A stretch of DNA of 64,000 nt from Promethearchaeia archaeon (GTDB lineage: Archaea > Asgardarchaeota > Lokiarchaeia > Sigyniarchaeales > SOKP01): contig JAHQWK010000012.1 of assembly GCA_029856145.1 (NCBI GenBank), forward strand, positions 32,001 to 96,000, read 5' to 3'. The stretch's first letter is position 1. Each line of letters starts with the position of its first letter. This document shows positions 49,734 through 63,423 of the stretch, in pieces. Made by a program: the position numbers and the translations under genes. A model generated the notes under the pieces. The model worked only from the letters and a program-made list of their open reading frames with translations. It was not told the DNA's origin and searched no databases.

Positions 49734-50636
49734 ATGTTAAATATTGAAACTGAGCAAAAAGAAATCCAAATAGCTAATGTTAAATTTGGTGGTCCGCCAG
49801 GTAAAAATCCAATTGTTATGATAGCCACTGTTTTTTATACAAAACATGCCGCTTTGTTGGATGAAAAAACAGGTAAATTTGATAAATCTATTCTCGAAAA
49901 GGAATTAAATGATTTTACAGAAATTATTGAAGAAACACAATTACAAGGAGTAATTGATGTTGTTGGGGCATATCCAGATGCGCTTATAAAAGAATGTGAA
50001 TTTGTTGCTGATAATGTGGAATATCCTTTTTTAGTTGATGGGTTGAACGATTCATCTAGAATTCCTGCAATGAAAGGATTAGATGAAATGGGGTTATCAG
50101 ATCGAGCTATATTAAATAGTATCGATGAAAATACAACTGATGATAACTTAGAGAAACTGAAAGAAATTGGTGTAAAAAATGCTGTGTTACTAACATTTGG
50201 AAATAAATATCTTTTTCCACATCAGAAGTTAAAATTCTTAAAAGAAACCTTAATTCCTAAAGTTCAAAAAGCAAACATTGACAAATATATTGTTGATACA
50301 GCTGTATTAGACTTACCTTCAATTTCCATTAATTTTGAATCAACAAGATTAATTAAAAAAGAATTAGGATTACCAACCGGATTCGCTCCTGCTAATGCGA
50401 TATATGGATGGAGTTTTATTAAAAATTTTGGTGAAGTTGCTCGATGTGGAGCAATTGCTTCCATAATGACTTATTGTGCAACGGCTCCTAGTGATTTTAT
50501 TTTGTTTGGACCAATAAAATTTGCCAAATGCGTTATACCTGCAATTTCTTTAATTTCAGGGGTAAATTCTTACTATCAAAAAAGAGTTAAAAGACAAAAA
50601 GTATCTGATAGAAGTCCATTAAACATCATTTTTTAA
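49734..50636 (+). CDS. mtrH: Tetrahydromethanopterin S-methyltransferase subunit H-like methyltransferase
   Basis: VKFGGPPGKNP, TVFY, AILNSI, VDTAVLD, PTGFAPANA, DFILFGPI. Confidence 0.85.
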   Translation: MLNIETEQKEIQIANVKFGGPPGKNPIVMIATVFYTKHAALLDEKTGKFDKSILEKELNDFTEIIEETQLQGVIDVVGAYPDALIKECEFVADNVEYPFLVDGLNDSSRIPAMKGLDEMGLSDRAILNSIDENTTDDNLEKLKEIGVKNAVLLTFGNKYLFPHQKLKFLKETLIPKVQKANIDKYIVDTAVLDLPSISINFESTRLIKKELGLPTGFAPANAIYGWSFIKNFGEVARCGAIASIMTYCATAPSDFILFGPIKFAKCVIPAISLISGVNSYYQKRVKRQKVSDRSPLNIIF

Positions 50637-52135
50637 GCAATATACCTTAATAATAAATCTTGAGTGTATTTTAAGAATCCTTTCAATTCTGTTTTTATCT
50701 TTTCTTTTTTATTTTCATCATCTACTAAAAATAAAAAGAACATAATATTATCTTCAATTTTAATTCTTTGAAAAATAATTACAGAATTAGCAACTTTAAA
50801 TACTGCCTCATCTTGCTTTAATGCTTTAAATTTTGCAAAGATTTTAAATAATACAGCAAATTGAGGTGCTGAAACTTCAAAAACATTAATTACTTCTGAT
50901 TTTGGAATTTTAGTTAATTCCATTGCCTGGTTACTGTAATAATCAGCAAGAACTAATCCATCAACACTTAGTAATTGTGTCAAATAAGTATCTGTCATTA
51001 ATGAAAAATTTTTTAGATTATGATTTATCAAATCTCTATTAGGACTTAACTTTGAGATTCCTGAAGAGAATGCGCGCAATATAGTAAAGATTTGAAATAT
51101 TGTTGTTATGTAGATTTCAATTAGTTCAAATTGGCTAATTTCCTTTAATTTACTTTCGATAAATTCAATATTATCTTTAATTTCTTCTGAATCTAAGATA
51201 TCTGAGTCTCCTTTTGATAATATATAGATAATTGGTGTAGTTTGATTAAATTCTTTTATAACATCTTTTAAATTTTGGAGGTATTCAATACTTTCATCGA
51301 ATCTAGATTTATTTTTAATATCTATAAAGTAAAACATTAAATCTGCTTCATATAAATAAATTTCCGCTTTATCAATGTATTTCTCTCGAAATCTTTTTTG
51401 TCCACCCAGATCCCATAGAAATATTGTTGCCCCTAAAGCCTCAATAGATTTAATACTTGCCCCTACTGTGGGTTTAAGTCCAATTAATTTACTATATTTG
51501 CGATCTACAGAAAGTAGAAAGCTAGTTTTCCCACTATCGTCTAATCCCGCCATTAAAATCTTCATCTTCCTATGAGTTGTAATAGGGGTAGAAGGACTCT
51601 GTTCAATTTCAATTATTTTTGATAAAAGGTCTTGAAATTTACTTTGAATATCTTCACGTGGGGGATATGAATTACTTATTTCTTCGTCAAAATTCGTGAA
51701 AAACTCAAAAACTACTGGTTTGATTCGATTTATGTTGTTATATAAAAAGCTACGCCTATTTTCTTCTACTAATATTGAAAATGCTGTAGGTACCGCAGCA
51801 CTTTCAGAATTTATTCTTATAAAATGAAAATATGTAAGTGAAGTTGTTTTAAAATCAGGATAAGGTAATATCGCAAAATATTGAATTTTTCGAAGATCTT
51901 TTTCTTCAGTAATTATTTTATCACTGATAAACAGACTTAAGTTTTTTATCGAAATTTGAGTTATATCCCTATACGATAAAATAAGATCATCTTGGTTCCT
52001 TTGCTCAATAGTAAGTTCCTTTAATTCTTTCTCGGTAATATAATTAGGGAAAGAGTAAATCGGGGAAGGTCCTAACTCACCATATACGCTAAAGATAAAT
52101 CCTTTGACAATTGAAGTTCTAAGTAATTCTTCCAT
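50633..52135 (-). CDS. uDENN/longin-like + Arf/Rag-like GTPase + roadblock domain protein
   Basis: N-terminal GELGPSP. G1 GLDDSGKTS, PTVG, WDLGGQ, atypical G4 SKGD. C-terminal roadblock-like LSPNRDLI...DGLVLADYY. Confidence 0.82.
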   Translation of the reverse strand: MEELLRTSIVKGFIFSVYGELGPSPIYSFPNYITEKELKELTIEQRNQDDLILSYRDITQISIKNLSLFISDKIITEEKDLRKIQYFAILPYPDFKTTSLTYFHFIRINSESAAVPTAFSILVEENRRSFLYNNINRIKPVVFEFFTNFDEEISNSYPPREDIQSKFQDLLSKIIEIEQSPSTPITTHRKMKILMAGLDDSGKTSFLLSVDRKYSKLIGLKPTVGASIKSIEALGATIFLWDLGGQKRFREKYIDKAEIYLYEADLMFYFIDIKNKSRFDESIEYLQNLKDVIKEFNQTTPIIYILSKGDSDILDSEEIKDNIEFIESKLKEISQFELIEIYITTIFQIFTILRAFSSGISKLSPNRDLINHNLKNFSLMTDTYLTQLLSVDGLVLADYYSNQAMELTKIPKSEVINVFEVSAPQFAVLFKIFAKFKALKQDEAVFKVANSVIIFQRIKIEDNIMFFLFLVDDENKKEKIKTELKGFLKYTQDLLLRYIA

Positions 52136-52229
52136 TCTTTTAATGTTTGAATTTTAAGTTTTTAATTAGTTAATTACTTAACTTAATTTAAGCAAATTTA
52201 ATTATTAATAGCTTTATATTTAAATATAG

Positions 52230-61350: not shown

Positions 61351-62640
61351 TTATTTATTGTTGTATGGAATTAATTTTTTCCCTCCTCTACGTCGCAATA
61401 AAAACATCAGAGTTATTACAGCGAGCAATCCTACTATTGTAAAGATAATAAAATAAATTTGTAGATCAGATGAAGGTCTAAGATTTGTTTCAAGAACGGT
61501 TACCTCAATCGAATACTGAAAATCATAAGCAGTATGATCACTACATATAGGAGAAGGGTTAATTGGAAATTCAGAAATATAGTTATATCCTGGTGATGCA
61601 CCTGGTAGGAAAAACCATGCGCCAACATTTAAATTAAATCTTAGAAAATCTATTCCATTAAAATATCCTTCTTTCCATGTTGGGTCACATACTATCCATC
61701 CAATATCTGGGATATAATATTCAACCCACGCGTGACCTAAAATTTTATTTGTATAAGAAACGGTTTGAGATGACCCATCATAATTTAGATCAAAAAAATA
61801 TTTATTACCAACTGCGGGGCGATGAGAAGGCTTGTTAGTAATTACAAATCCTGTTACTTTTCTTGCGGGAATGCTCTGAATTCTTAAGAGAGTAATCATT
61901 AAATCTGAAATATCTGAACAATCACCTTTTCGTTGATTATACGCCTCATATGCACCAATTTCCTGACTTTGCTCCTCATAACCAATATTTGATGCAATCC
62001 AATTGAATATCAACCTTGCTTTATCAACAGGGTTAATTAAAGATCCCACAATACTGTTTGAGAGTGCAATTAAATCTGGATTGCTGCAATTATAAAATAT
62101 CTCAGTCACGTTGTATAAAGAATGAATTTCATCACCAGGATTATAAGTCCCAATATCTCCATCATTAATCTCAGTAAAATAGATGTCATTAAGAGTAATA
62201 TTATAATTGTAATTTAACGTTATTTTCTGAGAAGTACTTAATGTCGAATTAAATAAATCATAAGTATTATTGAATTTATCTACAAATCCTTCTTCAATCT
62301 CATCCACATCCCATCTACTGATATTACTCTCAAAACTCTCAAGTTTTTGGTAGGGAGGGCAGTATGGGGTTAGTGTTGAATTAGGCTGTCGGTCATTTAA
62401 TCTAGCTACTTTGAAAATATATTTCTGAGATCCACTTTCAGTATGAGTTAGAGTATAATTCATTTCTACTTGATATGATACATTTTGGGAAATAATATAA
62501 TTAGAAACACCATAATCAGGAGCAGAAAGTTGAGGACATGCAGTAGTTGTATTAGAAGTTGTTAATAAAGATATCCCTATTGAATTTATTGATGGAAAAA
62601 TAATTAAGTACAAAAACACGAAAATTAATTTAGGTTTCAT
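61351..62640 (-). CDS. Membrane-anchored extracellular transglutaminase-like (Cys-His-Asp) protein
   Basis: Signal peptide, GDCSD, HAWVE, DPTW, and a C-terminal TM helix followed by RRR. Confidence 0.88.
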   Translation of the reverse strand: MKPKLIFVFLYLIIFPSINSIGISLLTTSNTTTACPQLSAPDYGVSNYIISQNVSYQVEMNYTLTHTESGSQKYIFKVARLNDRQPNSTLTPYCPPYQKLESFESNISRWDVDEIEEGFVDKFNNTYDLFNSTLSTSQKITLNYNYNITLNDIYFTEINDGDIGTYNPGDEIHSLYNVTEIFYNCSNPDLIALSNSIVGSLINPVDKARLIFNWIASNIGYEEQSQEIGAYEAYNQRKGDCSDISDLMITLLRIQSIPARKVTGFVITNKPSHRPAVGNKYFFDLNYDGSSQTVSYTNKILGHAWVEYYIPDIGWIVCDPTWKEGYFNGIDFLRFNLNVGAWFFLPGASPGYNYISEFPINPSPICSDHTAYDFQYSIEVTVLETNLRPSSDLQIYFIIFTIVGLLAVITLMFLLRRRGGKKLIPYNNK

Positions 62641-62787
62641 ATTAAAATCATAGAACTTAGATATATTTTATATTAGAAATAATAATATCTATTTTTAATT
62701 TTAACCATTAAAAAAATGTAAAATAAGAATAAAAGAGTGAATTTTTATATTTTTAATATAAGAAAAAAAACCTAATTTTATTGAGTT

Positions 62788-63423
62788 TTGATTTATAAGA
62801 TATATTTAATTGATGCTGATAATGGTATATCGCTTGTCGAATCCACCTTTAAAGAATTAAAGAAAGTTCAAGATGACATAATAACGGGATTTTTTAATGC
62901 GATTAATTTAACAATTGACGTAATTCAAGAAGCTATGGTAAAAGGGAGAAGAGTAAATGAAATGGATAGGGTTCTTCAATCCGAGGATTCAATTATTTTT
63001 ATTTATTACCACCCATTATCAAGAATTTTATTTTGTTCAATTTCAGATGCAGATGATGATTCTGAAAAAATCGAAGATGTAGTTCATAAAATAGCAAATC
63101 GATTTTGGAAAAAACACCAATCTGATTTAAAGAATTTCAGAACAACAACTGATAAAAGTAGATTCCAAACCTTAATTGTTGATATAGAAAATCTTACTAT
63201 TGGAGGACGTATAGCAGAGGTTTTTCCGAAATTATTGATTGTTAAGGGAGTATTAGAAAAAGTACTTTCTATGGGAATGATTGATAATTTTGATTTACAG
63301 GTAGCTTTACAATGCACTGGGAGAAATTCTCCCCTGAAGATTTCAAGGATTTTAAATAAAAAGCAATCAGAGATAATTCCCATTTTACAAAAACTAGAGC
63401 AACTTGAAATTATAAATATATGA
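62788..63423 (+). CDS. Longin-like domain + C-terminal winged-helix protein
   Basis: IYLIDADNGISL...ITGFFNAI longin pattern and C-terminal SPLKISRILNKKQSEIIPILQKLEQLEII wHTH pattern. Confidence 0.65.
   Translation: MIYKIYLIDADNGISLVESTFKELKKVQDDIITGFFNAINLTIDVIQEAMVKGRRVNEMDRVLQSEDSIIFIYYHPLSRILFCSISDADDDSEKIEDVVHKIANRFWKKHQSDLKNFRTTTDKSRFQTLIVDIENLTIGGRIAEVFPKLLIVKGVLEKVLSMGMIDNFDLQVALQCTGRNSPLKISRILNKKQSEIIPILQKLEQLEIINI

Follow-up and report, generated by a model that had tools for sequence, protein, structure and literature searches.

Paralogous longin-GTPase-roadblock proteins of one Lokiarchaeial order, with and without an arginine-finger motif, as a possible heterodimer

A stretch of 64,000 nucleotides from a Promethearchaeia archaeon (contig JAHQWK010000012.1 of assembly GCA_029856145.1), hereafter the window, encodes two paralogous proteins, A and B, in which an N-terminal longin domain is joined to a Rag-like GTPase (G) domain and a C-terminal roadblock domain. 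The longin of B carries an ARG loop that aligns with Arg147 of SMCR8, and this motif is lost in A. Our tentative reading, with a probability of roughly 0.47 for all its parts jointly, is that a longin-Rag-roadblock gene was duplicated within one Lokiarchaeial order to give A and B, that the two proteins act together as a pseudo-symmetric heterodimer in which only B brings an arginine finger, and that the neighbouring genes C, D and E belong to a long-conserved neighbourhood without being obligatory subunits. An earlier sequence-only reading had taken A-E together as a precursor of the eukaryotic Rag-Ragulator-FLCN/GATOR1 machinery. Its observations were confirmed, all five open reading frames (ORFs) being verified in place (Table 1), and its interpretation is partly supported. 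Orthologues were compared across four families (f1-f4) of the order, which include the genera g1 and g2; the source genome is G000. The orthologues are kin and do not count as independent events.

Comparison of the variable loop revealed the difference between the two longins. A has FIRINSESAAVP (aa 105-116) where B has LIPDDNARGKA. The ARG motif was present in all 38 B orthologues, from four families, and in none of the 31 A orthologues, from two families, while the GP motif was invariant in both. A profile of 58 arginine-bearing relatives, aligned weakly (E 0.085) with residues 57-201 of human SMCR8, placed the archaeal GP on G68-P69 and the RG on R147-G148, residues whose roles are described in the available text of PMC12290439. 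In the sequence searches SMCR8 was the only such chain reached, and weakly; FLCN and NPRL2 chains were not reached directly. The Pfam Folliculin match of B, described below, suggests that the arginine of B is equivalent to FLCN Arg164. The longin tree grouped A and B with a stand-alone type of longin (SH-aLRT, the Shimodaira-Hasegawa-like approximate likelihood ratio test, 95). No member of the A clade (SH-aLRT 96) has the finger, and the outgroup longins mostly possess RG; the loss of the finger is therefore derived, with one loss in A. The finger-less A has retained GP, as C9orf72 has, along with the SIKxxSL and ILPYPD core. The split between a predicted catalytic B and a predicted non-catalytic A, which the sequence-only reading had drawn from the missing ARG loop of A, is real at the level of these motifs and invariant across the order.

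The window proteins were searched against Pfam and the folds of A and B were modelled with AlphaFold. A and B constitute two separate orthogroups and share 31% identity over the whole length (E=1e-81), and both pass the Gtr1_RagA cut-off, as does C. The models of A (pLDDT, the predicted local distance difference test, 75; pTM, the predicted template modelling score, 0.47) and B (pLDDT 71, pTM 0.51) are both composed of longin, G domain and roadblock. The closest solved structures for the G-roadblock part were LokiRagO (PDB 8YL2, Z 24.3) and eukaryotic Rag/Gtr chains (Z 21). For the longin, the closest was Lokiarchaeal 8YQG (Z 18.9 and 16.9), followed by the C9orf72-SMCR8 entry 7O2W (Z 13.3), Lst4 (Z 13.0-13.5, with 4ZY8 among the entries) and chain N of the FLCN-FNIP2 entry 6ULG (Z 12.0). 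Longins of TRAPP and adaptins ranked below these longins of GTPase-activating protein (GAP) type. In both proteins the longin runs directly into the G domain and roadblock, and DENN or NPRL2-type C-terminal domains are absent. B showed a sub-threshold Folliculin match in Pfam at aa 96-154, and such a match below the cut-off is common to 29 of the 31 longins of the B-type alignment; the longin of A gave no Folliculin match in Pfam.

The same GP-type longin is also found in a tandem pair of longin and Rab-like GTPase fusions in the window (39631..40674 and 40839..41882, both on the minus strand). The second has RG in all orthologues seen. The first has KGG in the subclade of the source genome and RGG in others, a recent change of arginine to lysine. 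The four closest GP-longin GTPase fusions of the source genome all lie inside 22 kb.

The P-loop of A and B is Arf-like, GLDxxGKT. The G domain of A is as well conserved as that of B (41% across families), with P-loop, threonine and the lysine and aspartate of G4 intact. The atypical SKGD noted earlier in A was verified and belongs to a conserved S/T-K-x-D pattern: the first G4 residue is serine in 24 and threonine in 7 A orthologues, with K and D in 31 of 31, whereas B has asparagine (21) or histidine (17) and C has HKYD. The switch II glutamine is missing in four of the seven f2 A proteins. Next to the AIRS gene of genome G030 lies a positional orthologue of A in which the P-loop is lost and longin and roadblock are kept, as a scaffold would. 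Its motifs indicate that A is likely to be usually a nucleotide binder which tolerates decay. The loci of G030 (L195:1333-2877 and L070:9797-11161) hold this A-like protein and a B which has lost G2 and G3 and kept ARG. The G domains of both have decayed there while the longins persist.

The f2 orthologues of A at L027, L028, L029, L030 and L072 have DIPG(K/Q/S) as G3, several of them without the switch II glutamine, and f1 A has DLGGQ. The f2 form recalls G3 of RagC, which is DFPGQ. This RagC-like DxPG was not used as a sign of equivalence to RagA/RagC, being absent from f1 A.

The comparative evidence on pairing is more telling than the prediction of the A:B complex. A and B are co-retained in two families. 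In genus g2 they were the only two longins of this kind found, including in the single-contig genome G032, where they are 81 kb apart. In all four f4 genomes full-length A was not found, and a stand-alone finger-less longin of the A/B group (169-179 aa) is positioned 1.4-2.4 kb from B; that of G031 runs off the contig end. These last two observations, on the single-contig genome and on f4, are new. G005 possesses A, and B was not found there; its neighbours E and an L13e-like gene were also not found, hence a probable assembly gap, and this genome was left out of the counts against pairing. Prediction of the whole-chain A:B complex, which the sequence-only reading had proposed as a heterodimer through both longin and roadblock domains, gave 0.51 against 0.01 for the best control, with contacts agreeing at least 85% and partner pLDDT at least 76, a weak modelling support in which the interface was not returned. 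Of 80 solved complexes, 58 attained the mark used, as did 2 of 110 mismatches; those that attained it with a score of 0.60 or less were only 7 solved complexes and both mismatches.

Several points weigh against a heterodimer with one finger. Close cousins also pass the A:B prediction, which hence does not distinguish hetero- from homodimer, and the score may stem from likeness to solved Rag dimers. The f4 genomes are only 63-88% complete, and the tree does not place the stand-alone longin as an orthologue of A. The alignment with SMCR8 is weak, as its E-value indicates, and some f2 A loops hold unconserved arginines. A and B are 9 kb apart on opposite strands, and other arginine-bearing longins of the source genome (window 40839..41882; C3:181741) could pair with A. 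The literature search found no GAP assay of any Asgard longin. A finger-less GP longin, 8YQG, was solved as a single-protein dimer, so that loss of the finger needs no hetero partner. Tran et al. 2024 (PMC10933270), in the available text, modelled the longin-containing GTPases of strain MK-D1 as homodimers.

In the heterodimer, the roadblock tails of A and B would pair as in RagA/RagC and the longins as in SMCR8/C9orf72. They would form one platform on which the single finger, Arg108 of B, triggers GTP hydrolysis in one G domain. The simplest candidate for that domain would be one of the two tethered on 12-residue linkers, or else a Rag-like GTPase in trans, for example C. A would contribute the other half of the pocket, with its GP kept like C9orf72, and a second, differently tuned nucleotide site. 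A more specific form of this model is doubtful: a Rag-like heterodimer fused with an FLCN/SMCR8-like one-finger GAP heterodimer, in which Arg108 would fire on one tethered G domain and the finger-less half would be needed enough for one family to keep it as a stand-alone longin, making the whole an independent archaeal copy of the Rag and longin-GAP asymmetry.

Among the alternatives, it is unlikely, though the best surviving of them, that A and B are independent homodimeric switches, B with a built-in GAP and A using an outside GAP or holding GTP longer, with their proximity left from duplication. In f3 and f4 only B was found at full length; LokiRagO is homotetrameric and, as above, 8YQG is a dimer of one protein. 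The AlphaFold2 homodimer models of the MK-D1 longin GTPases, in the part of that study available, agree with this, and so do the broken linkage in G032 and a conservation which is common to unrelated genes. Homodimers would leave unexplained the finger-less longin of the same clade beside B where A is missing and the retention by A of GP and the SIKxxSL/ILPYPD core, and A:B scored above the controls.

The ARG loop could also be a conserved binding or structural motif, acting in the manner of a guanine nucleotide exchange factor (GEF) or a scaffold and not as a GAP finger; A and B might still pair, and their asymmetry would not be one of catalytic and non-catalytic subunits. The majority of longin dimers are GEFs or scaffolds, and the same RG loop occurs both in longins that stand alone and in those joined to a Rab-like GTPase or a roadblock. 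G030 B keeps ARG with its own G2 and G3 decayed, which fits action in trans equally. We consider this improbable, as the arginine is invariant in B and as GP plus arginine at the SMCR8 positions mark GAP-type longins and are absent from GEF-type ones, according to the available text of PMC12290439.

Gene order around A and B is inherited. A and B are separated by 5.5-15 kb in 18 of the 19 genomes with both on the same contig, the exception being G032. Between G000 and G038, 10 orthologues were found within 25 kb; none of 20 control blocks exceeded 6, and among control pairs at 8-12 kb the figure was 2 of 101. In the conserved block, 9 of 13 genes are unrelated to GTPases. In genus g2 the block is split into A-AIRS-SLOG-C and NERD-B-transglutaminase. 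In f4, B is situated elsewhere while D and E remain with the transglutaminase. In G030, C, D and B are adjacent and co-oriented. The synteny check, which the sequence-only reading had suggested, showed linkage above background, and also that unrelated genes are carried equally. The genes interspersed in the window (AIRS/PurM-like, SLOG, methyltransferase, NERD-like nuclease, NrdD-like and transglutaminase) lie on both strands; with unrelated genes between A-E and both strands in use, the cluster is not an operon, as that reading had also held. A five-gene operon or module was rejected on the mixed strands, the equal conservation of unrelated genes and the patchy D and E. Pure chance was rejected as the whole story of the clustering, gene order being inherited above background. 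Three small GTPases per 13 kb is ordinary for the source genome: with 87 small GTPases, about 1.2 such windows are expected and 8 were seen. Rag-like genes are fewer (about 14-16), and A and B, being duplicates, are not independent draws in clustering statistics.

An exosortase-like membrane protein (identified by eye, no Pfam match) and an MtrH gene converge on A at 48806..50636 of the window, and the exosortase-like gene stays beside A across families. The gene at 57917..59719 (plus strand), conserved upstream of B in genus g1, combines an ATP-cone with an NrdD-like barrel. It has five cysteines only, and the GC finger-loop motif and the RxxGY glycyl-radical motif are absent; from these residues it is probably a catalytically dead class III ribonucleotide reductase. 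The source genome also has, at C3:172799-186714, five Rag-like GTPases and a 227-aa longin with DNNARGG (C3:181741-182424) amid response-regulator and sensor genes.

C is orthologous to LokiRagO, which the title of PDB entry 8YL2 gives as a homotetramer; this entry represents the G038 orthologue (about 48% identical). C is a neighbour of A and B and a possible GAP client of them. The earlier domain calls stood for A, B and C, from Pfam and the models, and for the winged helix of E (TrmB match in Pfam in 9 of 18 orthologues). The zinc ribbon and roadblock of D gave weak Pfam matches (E 0.03 and 0.1), and the longin of E is suggested by a Pfam Longin match in 1 of 18 orthologues (E 0.04). The C-terminal part of D matches other small roadblock-sized ORFs of the source genome at about 1e-6. 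D mostly adjoins C; it was not found in G038, G032, G036, G025 and G028, and in f2 as a whole it was not found in 9 of 11 genomes, which include most of those with A, B and C. E was not found in genus g2. Profile comparison of E with the longins of A and B, which are of the GP type, gave no similarity (probability 0.7), and searches of PDB and Pfam yielded winged-helix hints only; E is, from these comparisons, not a GAP-type longin. No LAMTOR1-like gene was recognised in the window by the Pfam scan, and D was the sole roadblock-type non-GTPase gene of the cluster. The cluster near A and B does not fit Ragulator/EGO, in which several roadblock-only subunits are wrapped by a lipidated LAMTOR1-like chain, always with Rags. 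That A-E form one Rag-Ragulator-FLCN/GATOR1-like machine, precursor of the eukaryotic one, is therefore very improbable: the G000-G038 synteny, the adjacency in G030 and the A-B spacing speak for it, and against it stand the unrelated conserved genes, the many genomes in which D and E were not found, the removal of B from both in f4, the homotetrameric C orthologue, the non-GAP type of E and the confinement of the fusion to one order.

Table 1. Features of the window and of related f4 loci (window positions unless a locus is given)
Feature	Position	Strand	Description
A	50633..52135	-	500 aa; longin aa ~8-179 (GP kept, finger motif lost), Rag-like G domain (intact P-loop, S/T-K-x-D G4), roadblock; candidate finger-less partner
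B	59871..61334	+	487 aa; longin aa ~24-172, 12-residue linker, Rag-like G domain aa ~184-356, roadblock aa ~357-487; candidate arginine-finger subunit
C	54753..55718	+	321 aa; Rag-like GTPase-roadblock (HKYD, TSIY)
D	55912..56982	+	356 aa; N-terminal CxxC...CxxC zinc ribbon, long low-complexity linker, C-terminal roadblock (ribbon and roadblock by weak matches)
E	62788..63423	+	211 aa; probable longin-like N-terminal domain (putative, not GP/Arg type), TrmB-like winged helix
Arg108 codon of B ARG loop	60192..60194	+	aligned to SMCR8 Arg147
GP motif of B	59982..59987	+	
Variable beta4-beta5 loop of A, FIRINSESAAVP (aa 105-116)	51788..51823	-	one residue shorter, without RG motif
G4 SKGD of A (aa 307-310)	51206..51217	-	
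Stand-alone finger-less longin near B, f4	L065:12366-12905; L066:12350-12859; L067:9476-9985; L200:1-524		GP, GA or GT

In a search with a full-length profile of B, the three-domain protein turned up in this order only, and in none of about 225 Asgard genomes outside it. Two other families of the class matched the profile in the GTPase-roadblock part alone, and about 225 other Asgard genomes gave no match at 1e-60. B homologues carry mostly Promethearchaeota or Lokiarchaeota labels, and related longins are more widespread than the three-domain fusion. Heimdallarchaeia are the proposed closest relatives of eukaryotes in the available text of PMC12290439. The fusion, found in one order and not in the Asgard groups usually placed nearest eukaryotes, is hence a lineage-specific parallel and not a precursor; judged by its distribution, the fusion with finger loss is a local parallel to the eukaryotic design, not its ancestor.

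The fusion architecture and the Asgard GP/Arg longins are already published. Tran et al. 2024 (PMC10933270) describe, in the text available, GTPases of Promethearchaeum syntrophicum MK-D1 fused between longin and roadblock (LGR; WP_147663355.1 and WP_147663364.1), the same architecture as A and B. The G038 orthologue of A is identical, save one letter, to the printed G5 region of WP_147663364.1, and the sequences make WP_147663355.1 and WP_147663364.1 very likely orthologues of B and A. Neither the ARG finger nor its loss from one of the paralogues is mentioned in the available part of that paper, and an A:B pair is not mentioned there either. The longin of B belongs to the class of Asgard longins with GP and arginine finger (Traffic 2025, PMC12290439), of which that paper asks which GTPase they serve, and of NPRL2-like longins (bioRxiv 10.1101/2020.10.19.343400). 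The available texts of these two sources leave a GTPase-fused pair with a finger-less paralogue undescribed, and the A/B asymmetry was not found in the literature searched.

Likeness to SMCR8-C9orf72, FLCN-FNIP2 (Lst7-Lst4) and NPRL2-NPRL3 consists of the longin fold (Z 12-13.5), GP and arginine at the SMCR8 positions, and one arginine-bearing with one finger-less paralogue; in SMCR8/C9orf72 GP is on both subunits, as in A/B. These GAP heterodimers differ in that the A/B longin is fused in cis to GTPase and roadblock and has none of their DENN/NPRL2 C-terminal domains, in that the A/B heterodimer and GAP activity are putative, and in that the finger loss in A is an independent event. With Rag/Gtr proteins (RagA/B-RagC/D, Gtr1-Gtr2), A and B share the G domain with C-terminal roadblock, Gtr1_RagA and a TSI-type G5, with HKxD as G4 in C and many B orthologues. 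They differ by the extra N-terminal longin, the Arf-like P-loop and the S/T-K-x-D of A, and Rags are obligate heterodimers whereas A:B is putative. LokiRagO (8YL2) and the Roadblock-Longin longin 8YQG, the latter GP-positive and finger-less like A, are single-protein oligomers by their titles, and neither has the three-domain fusion.

The available text of PMC12290439 asks whether Asgard longins act as GAPs and which GTPase they would serve, and according to that of Tran et al. 2024 (PMC10933270) operons do not reveal which regulator serves which GTPase. Fusion of longin and GTPase does away with the need to match them, and A, which lacks the finger, offers a natural control for B. As orthologues of both exist in the cultured strain MK-D1, two soluble proteins make the GAP question directly testable. 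An A:B heterodimer, even if true, would not show the ancestry of the mTORC1 machinery; it would mean that archaea and eukaryotes each went, independently, through a duplication after which one copy lost its arginine finger.

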